Sequence record: OM258170
Length of the DNA: 47,884 nucleotides
Source: Escherichia phage ZL19
Reading direction: 5' to 3' (one strand)
Both the position numbers and the translations under genes were made by a program. Below the pieces are notes generated by a model. That model was given only the letters and a program-made list of their open reading frames with translations, had not been told where the DNA came from and did no database searches. This document shows, one piece after another, positions 1 through 47,884 of the stretch; the stretch's first letter is position 1; each line of letters opens with the position of its first letter.

Positions 1-45
1 AGCTGACGCGTAATCGCCGTAGCGCGATGTAAGCCAACGCCTATC

Positions 46-83
46 GTTACGCTAGTTACGCGCAGCTACGCCCAGACTTACAC
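46..83. repeat. GTTACGC-type iteron-like repeats
   Basis: GTTACGC at 46-52 and 55-61, GCTACGC 65-71, CTTACAC 77-83. Confidence 0.5.
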
Positions 84-94
84 TATAAGTGCCT

Positions 95-146
95 AATATA
101 TATATATATCTTCTTTCTATTATTATTATTATTATTAATATTATTG
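95..146. repeat. (TA)n and (ATT)n microsatellite, AT-rich
   Basis: ATATATATATATAT followed by 5x ATT. Confidence 0.8.
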
Positions 147-284
147 TATGTAAGTCGTGTAACGGGGGTCTCGGCGATATTTATATGTTTTTTCCTCTCA
201 GTTATAGCCTTGTCTATAATTTAGGATATGGGGGGTGTTTTTGGGCTATTTGCCTCGTTACACGCACGACACGCTACTTACACC

Positions 285-309
285 GAGCTATAGCTGGGCT
301 GAAATGCCA
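285..309. repeat. conserved 25-bp box with AGCTATAGCT palindrome (copy 1)
   Basis: GAGCTATAGCTGGGCTGAAATGCCA, 24/25 identical to 30410-30434. Confidence 0.8.
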
Positions 310-348
310 TTTCGCGTAACGACCCCTCAAAGTTACCAAAAATTACAC

Positions 349-377
349 TTGACTACATGTGTAAGTCGGGATATGAT
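349..377 (+). promoter_or_regulatory. sigma70-like promoter TTGACT-17-TATGAT
   Basis: TTGACT 349-354, 17-nt spacer, TATGAT 372-377, ~30 nt upstream of first gene. Confidence 0.6.
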
Positions 378-408
378 GGACTCAACTTAAACGAGAGGAG
401 TGATAGAA

Positions 409-5422: not shown

Positions 5423-5500
5423 GCTCTGCTAGCTCAACAGGATAGCAGCAACGACCTTCTAAGTCGTAGGTTACTGGTTCGAATCCAGTGCGGAGCGCCA
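5423..5500 (+). tRNA. tRNA-Arg (anticodon UCU), CCA encoded
   Basis: 7-bp acceptor stem GCTCTGC/GCGGAGC, anticodon stem ACGAC/GTCGT with loop CTTCTAA, T-arm ACTGG-TTCGAAT-CCAGT, GG in D-loop; D-arm atypical (3-bp stem, long loop). Confidence 0.7.
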
Positions 5501-6651: not shown

Positions 6652-8217
6652 ATGTCTTTAGTATGGGAAGAAATGACCATTCAGGAAAAGATGGCCGTCA
6701 AGGCGATATCAGAACACAGCTTCGAGGGCTTTCTTCGCTGCTGGTTCCAAATCACACAAGGCGAGCGATACATCCCTAACTGGCACCACAAATATCTATG
6801 CCGAATTATCGACGAGATTATAGCAGGGGAGCGAAAGGACACCATCATCAACATAGCGCCGGGTAGTGGAAAGACGGAAATCGCTTCAATTCACTTTCCG
6901 GCCTACTCTATGGTTAAGTTAAAGAAGGTTCGCAACCTTAACATCTCTTTTGCCGACTCACTGGTTAAGCGCAACTCCAAGCGCGTACGTGACCTCATCA
7001 AGTCTCAAGAATTTCAGTCACTCTGGCCATGTAAGTTTGGCACTTGCAAAGACGATGAGCTTCAGGTTCTTGATGAGAGTGGCAAGGTGAGATTTGAGTC
7101 AATCTCGAAAGCGGCTGGTGGTCAGATTACTGGTGCTCGAGGTGGGTACATAACTGAAACATATAGCGGCGCGGTTTTGCTGGATGATTTTGACAAGCCC
7201 GCCGATATGCTATCAGCAGTGTACCGCTCGAATAATCACGTAATGCTAAAGAACACGATTCGCTCACGTCGCGCTAGCTCTGTAAAAGGAAAGGCGACAC
7301 CAATAATTTCGATACAGCAGCGACTGCACGTCAATGACTCAACGTATTTCATGATGGAAGGCGGTATGGGTATCGACTTTGACTTGATTAAGATACCTGC
7401 GCTAGTTACTGAGGATTACATAGATTCGCTTCCTGACTGGATTAAAGAACAGTTTGCGGAAGACGTATTAAGCAGTGAGTGCATTGAGCGAGATGGCGTA
7501 AAGTACTACAGCTACTTTCCTAAAAAGGAGTCAGTAAACGACCTTGTTGCGATGTGGGATAGTGACCCGTACACTTTCCTTAGTCAATATCAGCAGGAAC
7601 CTGTAGCACTAGGTGGAAACCTCATTAATGTGGATTGGTTCCAGCGAATCAGCGATACTTTCAGACCTCCAGCTAAGTATGACTATAGATTCATCACATG
7701 CGATACCGCGATGACTACAAAGAGTTATAGTGACTTCTCTGTGCTTCAACTGTGGGGATATAAGGATGCTAAGATTTACCTTATAGACCAGCGTCGAGGC
7801 AAATGGGAGGCGCCTGAGTTGGAGGCGGAACTACTGGACTTCGAGAGGAAATCAAGGGCAACCAGTCAGGTAGATGGCATCCTACGAAAAATCATCATCG
7901 AGAAGAAATCATCCGGAATCGGACTTATTCAGTCGGCAGGCAGAGTGATGAGAACGCCGATAGAGCCATACGTACCTGATAACGACAAGCTAACCAGGGT
8001 AATGAGCGCACTGCCACAGATTAAGGCTGGCAATGTAGTTCTTCCAGAATCAGCGCCGTGGTTAAGCGGATTGCTCACGGAGATTGCAGCTTTTACGGCA
8101 GATGATAGCCACAAACACGATGACCAAATTGACTGTCTAACAATGGCAGTAAACCTTGTTCTCAATATCGCAGATGATCCTAAGTCCAGATTAATGCGCA
8201 TAGCGGGAATTAAATAG
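6652..8217 (+). CDS. terminase large subunit
   Basis: 521 aa, Walker A APGSGKT, C-terminal nuclease-like region, position before portal. Confidence 0.85.
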   Translation: MSLVWEEMTIQEKMAVKAISEHSFEGFLRCWFQITQGERYIPNWHHKYLCRIIDEIIAGERKDTIINIAPGSGKTEIASIHFPAYSMVKLKKVRNLNISFADSLVKRNSKRVRDLIKSQEFQSLWPCKFGTCKDDELQVLDESGKVRFESISKAAGGQITGARGGYITETYSGAVLLDDFDKPADMLSAVYRSNNHVMLKNTIRSRRASSVKGKATPIISIQQRLHVNDSTYFMMEGGMGIDFDLIKIPALVTEDYIDSLPDWIKEQFAEDVLSSECIERDGVKYYSYFPKKESVNDLVAMWDSDPYTFLSQYQQEPVALGGNLINVDWFQRISDTFRPPAKYDYRFITCDTAMTTKSYSDFSVLQLWGYKDAKIYLIDQRRGKWEAPELEAELLDFERKSRATSQVDGILRKIIIEKKSSGIGLIQSAGRVMRTPIEPYVPDNDKLTRVMSALPQIKAGNVVLPESAPWLSGLLTEIAAFTADDSHKHDDQIDCLTMAVNLVLNIADDPKSRLMRIAGIK

Positions 8218-8257
8218 CACTAATTGCTAAACATTGAGGCCACGGATGGCGTATATT
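8215..8257 (+). promoter_or_regulatory. palindrome-type promoter module
   Basis: TAGCACTAATTGCTA 8215-8229 overlapping TerL stop; CCACGGATGGC; -10 TATATT 8252-8257. Confidence 0.5.
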
Positions 8258-29300: not shown

Positions 29301-29948
29301 CTACTTATCTTTAAGTAGCAACTTGATATCAATTCCTAGATTATTCTCAATCAATCCAGTCAGTGCACCTACCTTTTCCTTAAGCGCGAAGCATTGCGAT
29401 TCATACTTAAATCTTTCCTCCATCTCATCAGAACGACTAACCCAACACTGGCGAGCCTCACAAGCCAACATGTCGAGTTTTTCATCGGTATTCTTATCCA
29501 TGAGTAAGATCTCATTTATCCTTTGCTCTGCAACAATGCGCTGACTCAGGTGTGCATTTTGCGCATTAGCCACACCAAGCATCATGCGCGCTTCTTTTAA
29601 CTCATCAATGCTTACCATCTTACTGATTACTTCTTCTTGTTTTTTGACTAACGCCTCAAGTTCATGAAGTCGACGGATAACCCTGTGACGAAGAACGACG
29701 CTATAGCCAGTTATTAGCGTTTCTGTAAGTTCCTTGTTAAGTAAAATCTCTGATGTATAGCCGCGATTGTCCGTAAGTACTTGATAATCATCATGACCCA
29801 AATCTGGGGCATCGTTATAATGTAACAATTCATTGATCATTTCCTTTGTGTCGCGAACGACGTGATCATGACGCTTACCTGTCAATTCAGCAATTTCCTT
29901 CGTGCTCATCATGGTTTTTGGCTGTTCTTTGTACGCCTCAATGTTCAT
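29301..29948 (-). CDS. Rha-family regulatory protein with coiled-coil C-terminus
   Basis: MSTKEIAELTGKRHDHVVRDTKEMI matches Rha pattern; track ORF trimmed to ATG with AAGAGAGA RBS. Confidence 0.55.
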   Translation of the reverse strand: MNIEAYKEQPKTMMSTKEIAELTGKRHDHVVRDTKEMINELLHYNDAPDLGHDDYQVLTDNRGYTSEILLNKELTETLITGYSVVLRHRVIRRLHELEALVKKQEEVISKMVSIDELKEARMMLGVANAQNAHLSQRIVAEQRINEILLMDKNTDEKLDMLACEARQCWVSRSDEMEERFKYESQCFALKEKVGALTGLIENNLGIDIKLLLKDK

Positions 29949-30052
29949 TTTAGTCTCTCTTATGTTTTTCATGTCTCAGATTTTAGCCATCGTTTGGTTT
30001 TGGTCTATCGATTTTCGGTAGACCAAGCAGCACCATTGCCGCCATGCGCCTA

Positions 30053-30095
30053 AATATACCCAAAGATAGCTAGTTGTCTTTAGCAATTGGTGCTA
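30053..30095 (-). promoter_or_regulatory. palindrome-type promoter module (minus strand) for Rha gene
   Basis: Motif TAGCACCAATTGCTA on minus strand, -10 TATATT at 30053-30058. Confidence 0.5.
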
Positions 30096-30122
30096 TTTAT
30101 CGCCAATTCCACCATAAATCAC

Positions 30123-30215
30123 AGTTACACGTAACCGATGTAACTCGATGTATACAATCTCATCCGCGGAAAATGATATACGCACTGTTACGCCAATTTA
30201 CGCATTAGTTACATT
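30123..30215. repeat. GTTAC(A/G)C iteron-like repeats including palindrome GTTACACGTAAC
   Basis: Several GTTACGC/TTTACGC/GTTACAT copies in non-coding DNA. Confidence 0.5.
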
Positions 30216-30220
30216 AAAAT

Positions 30221-30270
30221 ATCTATATATATCAACCTTTTACTCTTATTATTATTATTATATATATTAC
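30221..30270. repeat. (TA)n and (ATT)n microsatellite, AT-rich
   Basis: ATCTATATATAT and 5x ATT then TATATAT. Confidence 0.8.
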
Positions 30271-30409
30271 TGTGTATATCATGTAACTACTTCTATAGAG
30301 TGTTTCGGTTATAATTTTAATATAATGTGGATTTATACAGTATTGCGTGGCAGCTATACCAATGCACCCCGCAAGGAATGGTATACACGATATACACACT
30401 GGTTACATT

Positions 30410-30434
30410 GAGCTATAGCTGGGCTGAGATGCCA
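30410..30434. repeat. conserved 25-bp box with AGCTATAGCT palindrome (copy 2)
   Basis: GAGCTATAGCTGGGCTGAGATGCCA, 24/25 identical to 285-309. Confidence 0.8.
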
Positions 30435-30514
30435 AAAAACGTAACTAGCGGCAATACCTACACGGAATTACAAAGATTCACGCGTAAGTCTGAATCAACG
30501 ATTGGCAAAACCAA

Positions 30515-30544
30515 TTGGACTGGCTACGGTGCCGAATATATAGT
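30515..30544 (+). promoter_or_regulatory. sigma70-like promoter TTGGAC-18-TATAGT
   Basis: Followed by TACCACATCGAAAG leader and RBS of gene 30582. Confidence 0.5.
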
Positions 30545-30581: not shown

Positions 30582-30776
30582 ATGACCTACTACATTATCA
30601 AAGAGAAAAACAACGCACTGTTCGGTGATTGCTACTTTGGTGGGCCGGCCGGATACACCACAGATAAGAGTGAAGCTGACAGATTCGAAACTAAAGAAGA
30701 AGCCCGAGATGTGCTGACCGGTTACTTCACTGAAGAAGATTTGAAGTCTGTTAAAGTAGTTAAGGTTAAGGAATAA
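30582..30776 (+). CDS. hypothetical protein (64 aa)
   Basis: ORF with GAGAGA RBS, first gene of recombination module. Confidence 0.45.
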   Translation: MTYYIIKEKNNALFGDCYFGGPAGYTTDKSEADRFETKEEARDVLTGYFTEEDLKSVKVVKVKE

Positions 30777-30779
30777 ATT

Positions 30780-31745
30780 ATGGGCTTTAAAGTTTACACA
30801 CGAGAAGAGCTATCAAACTGGGAGTACCACGCCGAAACTGAACACATCTCAGGTAGCTCGCTTGTTGAGATTATCCAGGGATCCCCAGCTAAATGGAAGT
30901 TCAAGCAGCGCAATAATGACAGCAAGGCGCTTAAATTCGGAACGCTTAGTCACACGTACATCCTGGAAGGTGACATGTTTGATAAAGAATACCTTCGAGC
31001 TACAGACCTTGACGCGATTGAAGGATTAATTACAAGCCAGACCGGATTATCGGCAGCGCTGAAAAAAGTTGGCGTGGCTGGCACGTCAGGGAAGGGCTAT
31101 AGCGAGCTCGTAGAGATGATGTATCGCTCTGGTGAGGATTGGCCTATTGAATGGCTAATTGAGCAGCAGGAGAGCGCCAGGGCGCTTGTGGAGGGTAAGG
31201 AGCTAGTTAGCGCAGCAGACTACGACAAGGTGGTGGCGATGCGTGAGGTTCTTTGCAACATCCCGGCGTATGATGCAATTGTGAATAGCGAAACGGCGCA
31301 GAAGGAGTTATCAATCTTTGGTGAGATTCTCGGTGTTGGAGTTAAGATTCGAATAGACCACGTTGATGTTGTTGATGGTGCGGTTAAGATCACAGATTTT
31401 AAAACGACCGCCGACGCAAGCCCGGAAGGATTCGGAAAGTCTGCATTCAATCACGGATACCTTGCAAAAATGTCGCTTCAGCGCGATCTGTTTGTGAAGG
31501 CATTCAACGAGAAGCGCAAGGTTGTTGTAGGATTGCTGGCGCAGGAGAAGGTGGAGCCATACTTACCAATGCTGTACACCCTAACTGACGAACAGCTACG
31601 AATCGGCCGTCTTCAGTATCTTGAGGCGCTGGCTACTTATAAGAAGTGCAAGGAGCTAGATATCTGGCCTGGATATTCGAATGGAATTACAGAGCAAGAG
31701 CTAATGATTCCTGAGTGGGCATTAAAACAATACAAAGAAATCTAA
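30780..31745 (+). CDS. PD-(D/E)xK recombination exonuclease (putative)
   Basis: IDHVDVVDGAVKITDFKT D..D-x-K motif; adjacent to ERF and SSB. Confidence 0.6.
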   Translation: MGFKVYTREELSNWEYHAETEHISGSSLVEIIQGSPAKWKFKQRNNDSKALKFGTLSHTYILEGDMFDKEYLRATDLDAIEGLITSQTGLSAALKKVGVAGTSGKGYSELVEMMYRSGEDWPIEWLIEQQESARALVEGKELVSAADYDKVVAMREVLCNIPAYDAIVNSETAQKELSIFGEILGVGVKIRIDHVDVVDGAVKITDFKTTADASPEGFGKSAFNHGYLAKMSLQRDLFVKAFNEKRKVVVGLLAQEKVEPYLPMLYTLTDEQLRIGRLQYLEALATYKKCKELDIWPGYSNGITEQELMIPEWALKQYKEI

Positions 31746-31746
31746 A

Positions 31747-31789
31747 TAGCACGAATTGCTAAAGACAAAATTAAAAGGCGGGGTATGAT
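31747..31789 (+). promoter_or_regulatory. palindrome-type promoter module
   Basis: TAGCACGAATTGCTA 31747-31761, -10 TATGAT 31784-31789, TACCCCATC leader. Confidence 0.55.
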
Positions 31790-31818
31790 TACCCCATCAA
31801 CAACGAACGAGGTTAAAG

Positions 31819-32469
31819 ATGCAAATTTCAGAATCATGCAAATCAATTTTAAACGCTCTACACACTGCAAAATCGCTATTTGCGAAGGCTGAAAAATCAA
31901 AGCAGAACTCACACTTAAAGAACAAGTACGCTACCTTAGAAGACGTACTAGCGGCTGTTGAGCCAGGCCTAGATGAGTGTGGCTTGGTTATGTTCCAGAG
32001 CGTGCTTGATGATGAACAAGCCAACCGTATGAAGGTTGAGACAAAATTGTTTCATGCTGAATCTGGAGAGTGGGTTAGCTTCTTGATGATCGTCCCAATC
32101 AGTAAGAATGATGCACAAGGTTACGGATCAGCATTAACATACGCTCGACGATACGGCATTACAGCAGCTTTAGGTCTTAGTCAGGCAGATGACGATGGTA
32201 ATCTCGCAGCTAAAGGTGTTAAAGACTTTAAGCGAGAACTTGAGAAGTGCAACACTCTTGATGAGCTTCGCAATGTCTGGAAAGATGCTAAGCAGTCACT
32301 CGATGCGGCTGGATGGAAGGTGTTTGAGCCTTACATTATCGAGCGAAAAGCAGAGATTGAGGCAAATGCAGCAACTGGCTTCAACCCAGCAACACCAAAG
32401 AAAGTTGCAGAAAAAAGTAGTACTACTGAAAAGATTGAAGTAGAATCACAACAAATCGACACATTCTAA
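31819..32469 (+). CDS. erf: ERF-family single-strand annealing protein
   Basis: KYATLEDVLAAVEPGL and GSALTYARRYGITAALGL resemble P22 Erf conserved segments. Confidence 0.8.
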   Translation: MQISESCKSILNALHTAKSLFAKAEKSKQNSHLKNKYATLEDVLAAVEPGLDECGLVMFQSVLDDEQANRMKVETKLFHAESGEWVSFLMIVPISKNDAQGYGSALTYARRYGITAALGLSQADDDGNLAAKGVKDFKRELEKCNTLDELRNVWKDAKQSLDAAGWKVFEPYIIERKAEIEANAATGFNPATPKKVAEKSSTTEKIEVESQQIDTF

Positions 32470-32512
32470 ATTAAGCGGGGATTCGTCCCCAACAAAACAG
32501 AGAGAGATAACA

Positions 32513-32932
32513 ATGCACGTAATTACTGGTCAGATTCGCAAAGCACCATTCACCAAAGAAGGCAGCAACAACAACGGACGTTGGAAAATGTACGCAGTAG
32601 AACTTTCTGAACGAATGAAGATTCGAAATCAGAATGGCGAGGATGAGACTGTTTACAGTAACTACCGCGCTACGTTCTTCGCAAAGGAAAATGTCATGGC
32701 ATGGTATGACGAAGCGTTCCAGGAAGGTAAGGTGGTCTCTATTTCGTCAGATACGTTACACATTACGGCGCGTGATCATAACGGAACTACATACACAACA
32801 GCGGAGCTTATCCGCCCTCAGTTGCAATTCAGCCAGCGCGAGCCAGCACAACAGCAGCCTCAGCAACAACAGCAGCAACCTCAGCGGTCACCGCAGCAGC
32901 AAAAACAATTCGATGACGACATTCCATTCTAA
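32513..32932 (+). CDS. ssb: single-stranded DNA-binding protein
   Basis: C-terminal acidic tail DDDIPF after Gln/Pro-rich linker. Confidence 0.75.
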   Translation: MHVITGQIRKAPFTKEGSNNNGRWKMYAVELSERMKIRNQNGEDETVYSNYRATFFAKENVMAWYDEAFQEGKVVSISSDTLHITARDHNGTTYTTAELIRPQLQFSQREPAQQQPQQQQQQPQRSPQQQKQFDDDIPF

Positions 32933-41050: not shown

Positions 41051-42187
41051 ATGGCAACTGCAAAAATTACCAACGAAGAACTGCGCGAAGAACTGGCAAA
41101 TGGCATGACAAACAAGGCAATCGCAGAGAAGTACGGCATGAACATTCGCAACGTTGAATTGCGTCGCAGTAAGCTGGCGAAGAGTGGAGAATTGCACGGA
41201 AACCCAGGCATCAAGAAGCTAGTTCCTGACGGTTATATGGTTAAGGGTACGTCAACCATGATTGACGCTGATGGTAACGAGAAGATTAGATGGGTCAAAA
41301 CCTCAATAGACAATGAGCGCCTTGAGGTTTTAATGGAGCAAGCTCGCGAGGCATTCTGCTCTGAGTTGCCAAAGGCCACTCCATCTGAATCACCAAATGT
41401 TAACTTTGATAATGACACACTTGCGATGTATCCAGTTTTTGATTTGCACATTGGGGCGATGGCCCACAAACATGAGTGTGGCGAAAACTATGATACAGCA
41501 ACAGCAGAGAATGTTATGAATGGGTTCTTTGACTACGCTGTAGATAAGGCGCCAAACTCTAAGAATGCTGTATTGGTATTGGGTGGTGATTTCCTACATT
41601 ACGATTCCCTAGAGGCTAAAACCCCGGCCTCAGGCCATATCTTAGACTCTGACAGTCGTTACGCTAAGATTGTTTATGTCGCAATCCGGTCAGTTCGTCG
41701 TGCGATCTCTCGAATGATGGAGAAGCACCAAGTTATTGATATTAAAGTAATAAGTGGAAATCACGACGAAGCAGGGATGGTTTGGCTTCGCGCTGCTCTT
41801 GCTGCATTTTATGAAGACGAGCCTCGCGTAAATGTTGATGTTAGCCCAGCTGCAATGATGATGACAAGCTTTGGAACGACGCTTATTGGATACACTCATG
41901 GCCACCAAATGCGGAAAGCCGATACTCGACTAACTGTTATGGCAACTGATTTTCGTAAGTTATTTGGTCAAAGTGAGTATGTTTACACACATAGTGGCCA
42001 CTGGCATTCTCAGAAGATTACAGAAACAAACTTGGGAATTGATGAGGTTCATGGGCAGCTGGGAAGTCCTGACGCGTACTCAGCAAATGGCGGCTGGCGC
42101 TCTCAACGTCAAGCGGCAGTTATTGTCTACCATAAAGAATTCGGTGAAGTTGGCCGCTTCATTTGTCGCCCTAAAATGTTTAGCTAA
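41051..42187 (+). CDS. metallophosphoesterase with N-terminal HTH-like domain
   Basis: Calcineurin-like motifs GGDFLHYD, GNHDE, GHWH; N-terminal MTNKAIAEKYGMNIRNVELRR HTH-like segment. Confidence 0.6.
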   Translation: MATAKITNEELREELANGMTNKAIAEKYGMNIRNVELRRSKLAKSGELHGNPGIKKLVPDGYMVKGTSTMIDADGNEKIRWVKTSIDNERLEVLMEQAREAFCSELPKATPSESPNVNFDNDTLAMYPVFDLHIGAMAHKHECGENYDTATAENVMNGFFDYAVDKAPNSKNAVLVLGGDFLHYDSLEAKTPASGHILDSDSRYAKIVYVAIRSVRRAISRMMEKHQVIDIKVISGNHDEAGMVWLRAALAAFYEDEPRVNVDVSPAAMMMTSFGTTLIGYTHGHQMRKADTRLTVMATDFRKLFGQSEYVYTHSGHWHSQKITETNLGIDEVHGQLGSPDAYSANGGWRSQRQAAVIVYHKEFGEVGRFICRPKMFS

Positions 42188-44083: not shown

Positions 44084-45667
44084 TCACCCCAACAGTCGTG
44101 GATTAATGTAAACTTTATCACCAATCAGGCACGTATAGTTTTTCTCATCAAGCATTGGCAGTAAGTGATCTTTAATCTTTGTCATTACACCAGCCTGAGC
44201 TTCGAACGGCTTAACCTTACGAGCCGCTTCATATAGAGAACGAATACCCACTACTCCTTTACCGTTCTTGCCTTGCTTAATTAGAATATCAATCAGCTTA
44301 TTCATCTCGGCATTGTCGCCAGCGTGACCAGCGGCGTTTGCAGATGACAGATAAGTCTTGCTAAGTTCATGGAACATAATTACAGCTTCTTGCATGGTGT
44401 CGAGCTCGATCTCTCTGGACTTCTGTGGACTACCGCCATTTGGGTTGAACCAGTTGCGCACAGTGTGAAGAACAGCTGCAATCCTTATGGCCTGCTTATC
44501 GAACTTACCCAACGCGCCACGTAACATTGTGTGTGAATACTTCCCGCCATCTGCAAGGTGAGGCTCCATCTCCTGACGCGCACGGTTGAGGTATTTCATC
44601 GCTGAGTTGCTAACTGTCAATTTCACTTCTTGCTCGTTCATGATCTCGTGAACCAGACGGAAATAGTTAGCCTTCAGCTCACCATCAATTGGCTCGTATG
44701 TTGAGTTGCCATTCTCATCAACGAATACGCGCTCACCAAGGAATGATTTTTCACGAACCAAAAGGAAACGTTCAGATACACCGATACCACGCGCACCAGC
44801 ATTCATGATGGCGTTGATTGTTTCATCCTGCGCAATTACAGAGATGCAACCCATAGCAACGAAACTCATGTTATTTTCTGCGTTGGCACGCGCGATAGAT
44901 ACGTTACCAGCGTCCCACGCTTTCAGTACAAGCTCGCTGTTCGTTTTCTTGGATCCGTCGCCATATGTCATACCAAGTAGTGAGTTCACGCTCGTTGCTT
45001 CATCCGAGATCACGGCAAAGTTACCCTGGCGGTTGTTTATTCGCGCAAGACCTTCAGGTGTGGTATCTGACACGGGGAAAACGATATCGCATAGCTTCTC
45101 GAGCTTCTCCTCTAACTCCTCTTTCTCCTCAAAAAGTGAGGCCATCTCTGATGGTGACTTCTCCTGCTTCATCTCTTTGGATAATGCAGATAGTTTTGCC
45201 ATGATCTTCTTGCGCTCACGCTTTCGCACTTCATTCAGTCGCTCAGTCTCAGCAATCATTGGAGCAATTGAAAGTGAGTTAATGGCTGACTTACCAGTCG
45301 ATGGTGGCTGGCTTGTTACGACGTAAAGCGAAGTCGGTTGCTGGGTTCCATGATACTCTACAGTAAAACGTCCAAGCATCGCCGCAGAAATACATCCCAG
45401 GAAGTGCATATAAGCAGATGACTCAGGGAACTGGACTGAGCGAGCGATGTTAGATGAAAGTTTACCAACAACATCAATGTCATTGCCGAGTGAGATTACG
45501 GGGTACTTGTCATTAGCAGCATCAATCTCGACTGGTGCTTTCCAGAATGATTGAGACTGACGATAGCCATTAGCATTAATAGCGACGCGCAGGGGTGAGA
45601 GGTTGTCTGCGGCAGCAATTGCCATAACCTGTTCAACAGATAGTTTATCTTCGTTGAAATCAAACAT
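44084..45667 (-). CDS. P-loop NTPase of unknown function (possibly DUF3987-like)
   Basis: 527 aa; Walker A SQPPSTGKSA and Walker B VISDEAT; GGAGAGAAG RBS. Confidence 0.6.
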   Translation of the reverse strand: MFDFNEDKLSVEQVMAIAAADNLSPLRVAINANGYRQSQSFWKAPVEIDAANDKYPVISLGNDIDVVGKLSSNIARSVQFPESSAYMHFLGCISAAMLGRFTVEYHGTQQPTSLYVVTSQPPSTGKSAINSLSIAPMIAETERLNEVRKRERKKIMAKLSALSKEMKQEKSPSEMASLFEEKEELEEKLEKLCDIVFPVSDTTPEGLARINNRQGNFAVISDEATSVNSLLGMTYGDGSKKTNSELVLKAWDAGNVSIARANAENNMSFVAMGCISVIAQDETINAIMNAGARGIGVSERFLLVREKSFLGERVFVDENGNSTYEPIDGELKANYFRLVHEIMNEQEVKLTVSNSAMKYLNRARQEMEPHLADGGKYSHTMLRGALGKFDKQAIRIAAVLHTVRNWFNPNGGSPQKSREIELDTMQEAVIMFHELSKTYLSSANAAGHAGDNAEMNKLIDILIKQGKNGKGVVGIRSLYEAARKVKPFEAQAGVMTKIKDHLLPMLDEKNYTCLIGDKVYINPRLLG

Positions 45668-46486: not shown

Positions 46487-46508
46487 TCTGTTTTAGCAAT
46501 TCGTGCTA
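46466..46508 (-). promoter_or_regulatory. palindrome-type promoter module (minus strand)
   Basis: Motif TAGCACGAATTGCTA on minus strand at 46494-46508, -10 TATTAT 46466-46471. Confidence 0.5.
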
Positions 46509-46653
46509 TTTCGTGCCTTTTCTATCGCCTTGAGCATAATTTCATGACTCTCAAGCAAGTCTTCGCGAAACCAGTCGCCGCAGGGCCAACCCTTTCCGCT
46601 GTAGGCGCTAATAACTTCCAGATCGAAATAATTTATCTCAGATGGTAGAAGCA

Positions 46654-47088: not shown

Positions 47089-47286
47089 TCAGAAGTTACC
47101 AAGTACCAAAGACATTTGCTTGCGTGTCTTGCACTCAGACAGCTTAGCGAACAAAGCCTTAGCTTCAGGGTCATCTGTCTGCTTTACACAGAATGCGCAA
47201 CTTTCTGCGATATCCTTCACACGGCGGCGAGCATCCTTAATTTCCATTGCGATTTCGTTTAAAGTGTTCTTGATTGCGATATCCAT
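47089..47286 (-). CDS. hypothetical protein (65 aa)
   Basis: ATG with GAGGG RBS; first gene of right-arm minus operon. Confidence 0.45.
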   Translation of the reverse strand: MDIAIKNTLNEIAMEIKDARRRVKDIAESCAFCVKQTDDPEAKALFAKLSECKTRKQMSLVLGNF

Positions 47287-47411
47287 TTTATTCCCTCGTC
47301 TCGTTTAAGTTGTTAGAGGTTCGCTTTGATGCCATCGCTGCTTGGGTGGTTATCCTGTTCCTTCAGGAGGCCGCTCGGCTCTTTACTTCCCACCCCGTTC
47401 TCTATGTATTA

Positions 47412-47454
47412 ACTATACTTCTTTTCTTTACTGCTGTTTTAACATTTCGTGCTA
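47412..47454 (-). promoter_or_regulatory. palindrome-type promoter module (minus strand, variant)
   Basis: Motif TAGCACGAAATGTTA on minus strand at 47440-47454, -10 TATAGT at 47412-47417. Confidence 0.45.
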
Positions 47455-47652
47455 TTTAATAACTTTCCACTTCATTTACTTCTTTCGAGGAACCCGGTCA
47501 GACTTTGCTGCCGGAGAAGGTGTCTGGGAGTTTACCTATTCGGAAGTGACTCAACGTGCCCTTTCTCAACACTCGCCAGCATTTTTCATCTGGACGATTC
47601 GACCTCTGGGAGGCAGCTACTTGGCGTTCGCTTCACTGCTTCCTTGAGGTAC
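47455..47652 (-). ncRNA. candidate non-coding transcript between two promoter modules
   Basis: ~200 nt downstream of minus-strand promoter 47653-47695 without an RBS-preceded ORF; speculative. Confidence 0.25.
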
Positions 47653-47695
47653 ATATTACCAGTTTCTTGATTTATGTCTTTAGCAAAAAGTGCTA
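47653..47695 (-). promoter_or_regulatory. palindrome-type promoter module (minus strand)
   Basis: Motif TAGCACTTTTTGCTA on minus strand at 47681-47695, -10 TAATAT at 47653-47658. Confidence 0.45.
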
Positions 47696-47715
47696 TTCGT
47701 CAGATTTATGGATTG

Positions 47716-47796
47716 TTGCAGATATTGCAATGATTTAGATGACTATTGCACATATAGCAATATTTCTTCATATGCAATGATGTTTTTGATTGTTGC
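47716..47796. repeat. cluster of inverted and direct repeats (TTGCA-N5-TGCAA, ATTGC-N7-GCAAT, TGCAATGAT x2, GATTGTTGC x2)
   Basis: Palindromes at 47716-47730 and 47745-47761 plus direct repeats, non-coding, near window end. Confidence 0.6.
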
Positions 47797-47884
47797 GAAA
47801 AGTGAAATGAATTGGGGAGCGAGTGAATGAAAGATTGATGGACTACCATACAAGTTGATTTTGATTCTGGGTGAACCATTTTTG

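Follow-up and report, generated by a model that had tools for sequence, protein, structure and literature searches.

What is the short AT-rich stretch with which the genome record of Escherichia phage ZL19 (OM258170) opens, and why does the genome hold a second stretch so much like it? The window analyzed here is the whole record of 47,884 bp, the complete, circularly permuted genome of a virulent Rtp/T1-like coliphage (Drexlerviridae, Braunvirinae) whose closest relatives are CEB_EC3a, PCEc3, AugustePiccard, BEK2/3 and DTL and whose gene order is that of Rtp and T1. A sequence-only reading had described positions 1-408 as a paralogous copy of 30123-30434 and had suggested duplicated origin or early-control regions. 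The two loci, called A (at the genome start) and B, are very probably conserved, paralogous cis-elements which bind protein, and the more specific reading that they are paired replication origins, with short iterons placed around an AT-rich unwinding element, was given a probability of about 0.5. That the end of the window joins its start, as had been supposed for a permuted genome, was borne out by AugustePiccard, BEK2, DTL, TH21 and CY1, in which 47675-47884 plus 1-1000 forms a single aligned block. Locus A crosses this junction (approximately 47677..47884 plus 1..408), and its separation from locus B around the circle is 17.8 or 30.1 kb.

Pairwise alignment of the two loci returned three colinear BLAST segments at offsets of 30121-30132, namely 95-163 with 30218-30287 (78% over 72 nt, E 2e-11), 269-309 with 30394-30434 (85%, E 7e-10) and 6-31 with 30127-30152 (77%). 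The Smith-Waterman score of A with B was 66 versus 21.9±2.7 (maximum 31) in 300 dinucleotide-preserving shuffles, and each locus was the best non-self partner of the other in the genome, for A in a comparison with the whole window on both strands. The colinear segments, the shuffle statistics and the mutual best match together indicate that the paralogy of A and B is real, with the same order and spacing of elements as first described. All of the elements named in that description were found where it had placed them, exactly or to within a few bases, although locus A has six ATT units and not five. The box had been named as common to both loci, and an 18-nt core of it was found to match the window exactly twice (at 285 and 30410) versus 0.02 matches expected. 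Read from left to right, both loci carry three minus-strand GTAA repeats, four direct TTACRC repeats (9-12 bp), a core of approximately 55 bp, two further minus-strand repeats, a variable stretch of approximately 90 bp, repeats, the palindromic box, repeats again and a rightward promoter (Table 1); the layout of the core is also common to A and B and consists of (TA)n, a short pyrimidine-rich tract and (ATT)n. A promoter had been said to follow the repeats, which was observed for A, while in B the homologous position lacks a promoter and the rightward site lies approximately 60 bp further downstream.

Table 1. Coordinates of features in and around loci A and B of the ZL19 window, and of two phage proteins referred to in the text.
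Feature	Position	Strand	Remarks
21-nt T1-like repeat ATAGCACnnnTTGnTAAA, leftward, promoter-associated	47677..47697	-	exact match 47679-47696; left edge of locus A
TTGCA/ATTGCAAT-type repeat cluster, probable pac	47716..47796		locus A only; identity 0.85-0.93; four ATTGCA in 55 bp
Three GTAA-type short repeats	8..36	-	GTA at 10, 19, 29; spacing 9-10 bp; kept in 8 phages
Four direct TTACRC repeats	45..84	+	starts 48, 57, 67, 79; spacing 9, 10, 12 bp; immediately 5' of AT core
Perfect 8-bp inverted repeat GACTTACA / TGTAAGTC	75..156		flanks AT core; arms 66 nt apart
AT core: (AT)7, CTTCTTTCT, (ATT)6, AATATTATT	94..146		candidate DNA unwinding element
Two short repeats (TGTAAGTC, GTGTAAC)	149..165	-	right side of AT core; conserved
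Variable spacer	166..255		within second inverted pair 156-167 / 253-264; identity 0.53-0.70, indels
Additional short repeats (GTTACAC, CTTACAC)	256..284	+	
Box GAGCTATAGCTGGGCTGAAATGCCA with 10-bp palindrome AGCTATAGCT	285..309		24/25 bases identical to 30410-30434
Short repeats, both orientations (GCGTAAC, AGTTACC, ATTACAC, GTGTAAGT)	313..366		overlap promoter
Sigma-70-type promoter-like site TTGACT-17-TATGAT	349..377	+	10/12 consensus positions; serves rightward gene block
21-nt T1-like repeat, leftward	30076..30098	-	match 30079-30096; left edge of locus B; kept in 13 phages
Locus B GTTACAC, three GTAAC/GTATAC repeats (minus strand, 10-bp phase), ATCCGCGGAAAAT, four direct TACGC/TACAT repeats	30123..30214		
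Locus B AT core: (TA)n, CAACCTTTTACTC, (TTA)5, (AT)4	30216..30269		also found by Tandem Repeats Finder
Locus B short repeats TGTGTATATC, ATGTAACTA	30271..30289	-	right of AT core
Locus B TATACAC repeats and box GAGCTATAGCTGGGCTGAGATGCCA	30384..30434		box at 30410-30434
Locus B promoter-like site TGGACT-17-TATAGT	30516..30544	+	9/12 consensus positions; upstream of recE/erf/ssb block
T1 gp16 homologue: helix-turn-helix plus Mre11-type metallophosphoesterase	41051..42187	+	present in all five genomes
DUF3987 protein, T1 gp09 homologue	44084..45667	-	leftward operon starting at locus A

The short repeats were 5-10 times enriched at the loci, with a phase of 9-12 bp and opposite orientation across the core; in both loci four plus-strand repeats lie left of the core and two minus-strand repeats lie right of it. 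The TACRC core word is present in 11 copies in A and 9 in B, which is 18 per kb at each locus versus 3.5 per kb genome-wide, and GTTACA/TGTAAC was the most enriched hexamer repeated in both loci (p 1.5e-8). In locus B the GTAA-type repeats are found at 30131, 30140 and 30150 and the direct repeats at 30179, 30189, 30199 and 30210. The inverted repeat of locus B (TAGTTACAT / ATGTAACTA) differs in sequence from that of A, and its arms are exactly 66 nt apart, as in A. Within the core of A, (AT)7 occupies 96-109 and (ATT)6 occupies 119-136, and Tandem Repeats Finder reported a period-3 repeat of 9.3 copies (118-145) as the top-scoring tandem repeat of the window. Duplex stability was calculated as nearest-neighbour free energy in 40-, 60- and 100-bp segments and expressed as a genome-wide z. 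The core of locus A was the least stable 40- and 60-bp segment of the genome (z 5.0-5.5), and the core of locus B was the second least stable at these two lengths and the least stable 100-bp segment (z 4.4-5.1), the next least stable 40-/60-bp segment after the two cores having a z of approximately 3.2-3.3.

It is hardly credible that the loci are without function, being simply low-complexity AT-rich DNA, a coding ORF (open reading frame; 89-319) or a chance similarity. Microsatellites do align easily and there are ORFs of 76 and 87 aa over the cores, yet the shuffle statistics and the double occurrence of the 18-nt box argue against chance, and the comparison with relatives argues against coding. 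In an alignment of eight A-type copies, 200-250 was hypervariable and indels of 1, 3, 6 and 8 nt were present, B-type copies likewise carry frame-breaking indels, and the trinucleotide repeat is read in one frame by the ORF over the A core and in another by the ORF over the B core. The earlier opinion that ORF 89..319 is probably not coding therefore agrees with the alignments, by which it is judged to be non-coding. The stretch 92-166 was the most conserved of the locus A region, with an identity of 0.95-0.98 among six genomes, which equals the promoter level and above that of the adjoining gene (0.56-0.94 among six genomes). Among relatives, the TTACRC block had an identity of 0.89-0.91 and the promoter-like site of locus A, which is an annotated promoter in CEB_EC3a, an identity of 0.97. 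The lengths of the (TA)7 and (ATT)6 tracts were the same in 8 of 8 A-type copies, which is unusual for microsatellites, and microsatellite lengths were nearly invariant in 9 Braunvirinae/Nouzillyvirus B-type copies. Purifying selection on this non-coding DNA counts in favour of the origin reading. Recurrence of the arrangement in five genomes, described below, also speaks against an absence of function.

The KP36 record contains a gp01, "hypothetical protein, one transmembrane domain" (110-415), which spans its start-locus AT core and is probably a low-complexity ORF artefact like ORF 89-319. The CEB_EC3a record likewise stretches Ec3a_41 upstream into locus B. The inverted repeats were also considered as DNA or RNA stems and were rejected as such, as substitutions in relatives were uncompensated in the A-type alignment; they are consequently read as protein-binding sites. 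The second pair (156-167 / 253-264) was similarly rejected as a conserved stem, compensatory changes being absent in relatives.

Locus B matched 134 phage records, and its core (30126-30298) retained 78-85% identity even in Rogunavirinae, where the flanks fail to align. The left neighbour of the B-type module varies (Rha-like, lipoprotein or Dcm) with the module unaffected. A-type sequence was found in 18 records only, from Guelphvirus, Loudonvirus, Christensenvirus, Nouzillyvirus and Eastlansingvirus, and the box is kept in Braunvirinae and Nouzillyvirus copies and not in Rogunavirinae. A BLAST comparison of the B core with 72,556 plasmids and 5,426 E. coli genomes gave zero matches, which argues against the module having been acquired from a prophage or from the origin of a plasmid. 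A scan of IMG/VR with the 18-nt box returned a single contig, of no comparative use.

The pair had been presented as a feature of this genome; it is present here, but it was in fact found in all five Drexlerviridae genomes examined whole, which represent four subfamilies plus Webervirus. The genome start of Rtp carries a second, more B-like copy (84.6% identical to the B core), and T1 (Tunavirinae), TLS (Tempevirinae) and Klebsiella phage KP36 (Webervirus) each have analogous modules in two places, one at the start of the genome and one upstream of recE. KP36 has its recE block in inverted orientation, and the accompanying module is inverted too. In 5 of 5 genomes no other 60-bp segment is as unstable as the two AT cores, whose z values are 5.5 and 5.1 for ZL19 (next 3.3), 5.15 and 5.02 for Rtp (next 3.6), 5.8 and 5.5 for T1 (next 3.75), 5.1 and 5.1 for TLS (next 3.4) and 6.0 and 5.6 for KP36 (next 4.8). 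The repeat word differs between lineages. GTTAC counts at the two loci were 6/8 in ZL19, 2/7 in Rtp, 2/8 in T1, 0/0 in TLS and 0/0 in KP36, while GTTCAC (3/2) and GAACA (7/6) were enriched at both loci in TLS only and GTAAGA (3/9) in KP36 only. A word which is lineage-specific yet common to both loci of a genome points to a shared function and to one phage-encoded sequence-specific binder. As three coliphage lineages share E. coli as host and differ in the word (GTTAC versus GTTCAC), a phage-encoded binder is favoured over a host factor.

A second word was noted within the module. ATCCGCGGAAAAT (30163-30175) holds a CCGCGG palindrome, is kept in B-type copies across subfamilies and recurs in the start-locus copy of Rtp (approximately 175-185 and 370-400), where CGCGGA occurs 5 times. 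It is possibly a second candidate protein-binding word.

Taken with the comparative data, the anatomy fits the suggestion of duplicated origin or early-control regions and favours the origin half. From paralogy, conservation, anatomy, extreme duplex instability, shared lineage-specific words and the presence of an MCM-like helicase we infer protein binding, melting, helicase loading, origin function and a reason for two copies along the following lines. One cis-acting module, anciently duplicated, would have been kept at two fixed places in Drexlerviridae genomes, copy 1 between the divergent genes at the conventional start of the genome, beside pac (the packaging initiation site), and copy 2 upstream of recE-erf-ssb. 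A phage-encoded sequence-specific protein would occupy the phased 5-7-bp repeats of GTTACRC/GTAAC type, the (TA)n/(ATT)n core of approximately 55 bp would melt, and a replicative helicase would be loaded at the core, probably in both directions, with opening possibly assisted by the flanking divergent early promoters. The candidate for this helicase is the DUF3987 protein, acting with a separate zinc-ribbon primase.

The predicted structure of the DUF3987 protein is, with high confidence, an MCM-like AAA+ ATPase with a winged-helix-like C-terminus, related to SaPI (Staphylococcus aureus pathogenicity island) Rep and SCCmec Cch; cellular MCMs match it structurally better than either of these. 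On this structural model it is a candidate self-loading replicative helicase. Locus A lies approximately 2 kb upstream of the helicase operon, on its promoter side, and locus B approximately 14 kb away. What remains of the replication module is the zinc-ribbon primase already named, together with an SF2 helicase and a Cro-like protein (T1 gp23 homologue); the annotation of the T1 primase notes a similarity to P4-family alpha proteins. When the sequences of the DUF3987 helicase, the Cro-like regulator and the gp16-like nuclease were compared with the PDB, no significant match was returned.

Of known systems, SaPI origins offer a close anatomical likeness. A SaPI ori contains 6-12 penta- or hexanucleotide iterons and an AT-rich centre, with at least two opposite-facing iterons per side (PMC9371898; Ubeda et al. 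2007 therein), and a self-loading helicase binds the iterons via its C-terminal winged helix (PMC9371898; see also PMC7581432). The ZL19 loci share with them the many 5-7 nt iterons, the AT-rich centre and opposite-facing iterons on both sides, and among the ZL19 proteins there are likewise an MCM-like AAA+ helicase, which has a winged-helix-like domain at its C-terminus, and a separate primase. SPP1 offers a precedent for the pairing, having two origins, oriL and oriR, each of which has direct repeats together with an AT-rich unwinding element (PMC6316719). It is also a pac-type headful siphovirus of approximately 44-48 kb whose paired origins are alike in organization, one of them in a long intergenic region, and they are 13 kb apart (31 kb the other way). 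SPP1 oriL, however, is inside initiator gene 38, its boxes are bound by gp38, and a DnaB-type helicase with a loader is used, whereas the ZL19 loci are both intergenic and the helicases found in ZL19 were the MCM-like (DUF3987) and SF2 proteins. Sequence similarity between SPP1 and ZL19 was not seen, though no search was aimed at gp38, gp39 or gp40 homologues.

Phage P4 has two separate cis regions, ori and crr, with the same short repeat, bound by alpha. P4 alpha is a single primase-helicase-origin-binding protein, whereas in ZL19 primase and helicase are separate and an origin-binding domain was not identified. The TLS word GTTCAC resembles the P4 octamer, TGTTCACC, a resemblance which is offered as a lead only.

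Several observations weigh against the origin reading. Neither ZL19 locus is directly downstream of the helicase gene, where SaPI origins are found, and the C-terminal winged helix of cellular MCMs, the best structural matches, is not known to be an origin-recognition domain. A proteome-wide scan across genomes for a repeat binder returned no convincing candidate, and per-segment identities of the MCM-like helicase, the Cro-like regulator, the primase and the SF2 helicase did not track repeat type. Cumulative GC and AT skew followed gene orientation only and gave no independent origin signal. The cores of T1 are (TA)-rich with a clear trinucleotide repeat absent, so that the (ATT)n detail is not universal. 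Finally, arrays of regulator-binding sites between divergent early promoters would look alike.

Two familiar types of origin were considered and rejected. For a DnaA-dependent oriC-like origin, zero GATC sites were found in locus A or B versus 75 genome-wide, and the density of DnaA-box-like sequence (TTWTNCACA, one mismatch) was approximately that of background. A lambda-type origin, with iterons within the initiator gene, does not agree with A and B being intergenic and with the overlapping ORFs not being conserved.

The gene setting of the loci bears on the last of the objections to the origin reading. Each locus occupies a whole divergent intergenic region, and the statement that each heads a plus-strand gene block was found to be correct, both being located between divergent transcription units. 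To the left of locus A is a leftward block of small genes (to 47286) and the DUF3987 helicase gene, and to the right a rightward block with DUF7174 (409-888) as its first gene; locus B is flanked by a Rha-family DNA-binding gene (29301-29972, minus strand) and by the recE/erf/ssb block (30582-32932). Since both loci are situated between divergent early promoters, control of early transcription stays a serious, if less probable, rival. The repeats would then be operators, for a Rha-like protein or the Cro-like T1 gp23 homologue, or would serve the loading of nucleoid proteins, in either case switching the divergent early promoters that flank the locus, with the AT core acting as a bent or UP-like element. 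Each locus does lie between a leftward promoter element of the 21-nt repeat type and a rightward sigma-70-type site, the repeats overlap the promoter of locus A, and a Rha-family gene adjoins locus B. A perfect match to the IHF (integration host factor) consensus is also present inside the AT core of B at 30230-30242; as it occurs in locus B only, it is too weak to use. On the other side, the AT core is approximately 200-250 bp from the rightward promoters, which is too far for an UP element, the Rha-like neighbour is swapped for a lipoprotein or Dcm gene where the module is unchanged, and in B the core was kept but the counterpart of the locus A promoter decayed. At least 20 sites over 400 bp around the least stable DNA also exceed what a simple operator would need. 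Beside the rightward promoter-like site of locus B, a palindrome, ATTGGCAAAACCAAT (30496-30512), abuts the -35 element and is a possible operator; it was seen in the nearest relatives only.

A further development of the paired-origin reading was considered, which we hold to be rather doubtful, namely that T1-like phages have an undescribed dual-origin system in which two distant iteron-flanked microsatellite unwinding elements are both required and the MCM-like helicase is loaded at each. The two copies might be cooperative, as are P4 ori and crr, or initiation might take place at one and the other serve as a fork barrier; such a barrier would change the mode of replication from theta to concatemer synthesis, a role that has been proposed for SPP1 oriR. 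If the length of (TA)n/(ATT)n represented the geometry of helicase loading, this would explain why a normally unstable microsatellite is frozen.

Entry into recombination was also weighed and appears improbable. It would require a site-specific nick or cut at the loci, for example by the helix-turn-helix (HTH)-fused Mre11-type nuclease, to feed RecE, Erf and SSB and thereby recombination-dependent replication and concatemer formation. Locus B is linked to recE-erf-ssb even where the block is inverted, and the HTH plus metallophosphoesterase protein is kept in all five genomes. Against this, a cleavage site or end signature is not visible in the sequence, the start-locus copy is not beside recombination genes, and the nuclease's HTH does not vary with repeat type; the proposal is pure inference. 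The N-terminal HTH of this protein (41051-42187) is LuxR/sigma-region-4-like and covers residues 13-46 (weak Pfam hits). The protein was the sole proteome-wide outlier in identity, with 87.5% to T1, where most proteins have approximately 50%, and 56-64% to TLS and KP36. As the repeat binder it was not convincing, as the excess identity to T1 is in the nuclease domain and not in the HTH, which suggests that the nuclease part was exchanged recently.

The repeat cluster at 47716-47796 had been expected to join locus A if the genome is circularly permuted. It does adjoin locus A across the junction, but it is a different kind of element and lies outside the duplicated module. Position 1 of the T1 record, the annotated start of a 2800-bp terminal repeat, falls inside the equivalent TTGCA-type cluster, as does position 1 of Rtp, which corresponds to window position 47756. 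Position 1 of TLS is in the equivalent intergenic region, in GATTTGATT-type rather than TTGCA repeats. All three positions are approximately 215-223 bp upstream of the AT core, and none is within the shared module. The TLS pac was mapped by restriction analysis to the region of its record start (PMC11447400). Because of the T1, Rtp and TLS record starts and the TLS mapping, 47716-47796 is read as the probable pac or small-terminase binding region, a separate element adjoining locus A. That the shared module is itself part of pac recognition, with locus B as a secondary pac, is very unlikely. Locus A is approximately 220 bp from the pac/genome-start position of T1, TLS and Rtp, and the SU57 paper places T1 pac in the same untranslated region (PMC7718038); however, the TTGCA-type cluster of the record starts is absent from locus B, which is 24 kb from the terminase genes, and T1 and TLS are described as packaging from a single pac site (TLS: PMC11447400).

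With regard to novelty, iterons were not found in the TLS re-annotation (PMC11447400) and an oriC-like site was not found in the SU57 study (PMC7718038). No T1-like origin was reported in these recent TLS and SU57 papers, an earlier mention in the Rtp or T1 genome papers being possible. Elements of this kind, iteron plus unwinding-element origins, paired as in SPP1, are already known, and as far as the literature covered extends the present pair would be new for T1-like phages. T1 is one of the seven classic T phages. For its family the loci provide two concrete, easily testable candidate origins, a possible MCM-like helicase partner and a probable adjoining pac. If confirmed as origins, they would give a starting point for the engineering of T1-like phages, which are frequent both as candidates for therapy and as contaminants of fermentations, would make a second pac-type siphovirus with paired origins after SPP1, and would be an example of a microsatellite held at fixed length by selection. 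If their role is regulatory instead, they would nonetheless mark the chief regions of early control in the family.

One copy of a 21-nt repeat marks the left edge of each locus. This intergenic repeat, aaATAGCACnnnTTGnTAAAA, was already described for TLS, T1 and Rtp, and its function was listed as an open question (PMC11447400). The window holds 19 copies versus 0.6 expected; the copy beside locus A had a mean pairwise identity of 0.96 among 6 genomes, a leftward copy is found at 47438-47455, and other sites include 2913-2930, 8214-8231, 31746-31763 and 46492-46509. The repeat differs from the module in being dispersed and in facing downstream genes, whereas the module is present only twice and has other sequence and anatomy. 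It is often trailed approximately 17 bp on by TATAGTTAC, and the combination resembles a promoter specific to the family that has a palindromic element upstream.

Between the last small gene (47089-47286) and locus A there are approximately 390 bp (47287-47675) with no credible ORF on the minus, transcribed strand. Folding of the minus strand over 47287-47660 gave z values of 0.10 and -0.85, with no structure signal. Sequence matching 47287-47675 was absent from AugustePiccard, BEK2, DTL, TH21 and CY1, and by eye the region closely resembles the text at the Rtp junction. At the gathering threshold Rfam returned nothing at the loci; its sole hit in the window was a tRNA at 5423-5497, belonging to a tRNA-Arg (anticodon TCT; 5423-5500, plus strand), which is likewise present in SU57 and other T1-like phages.

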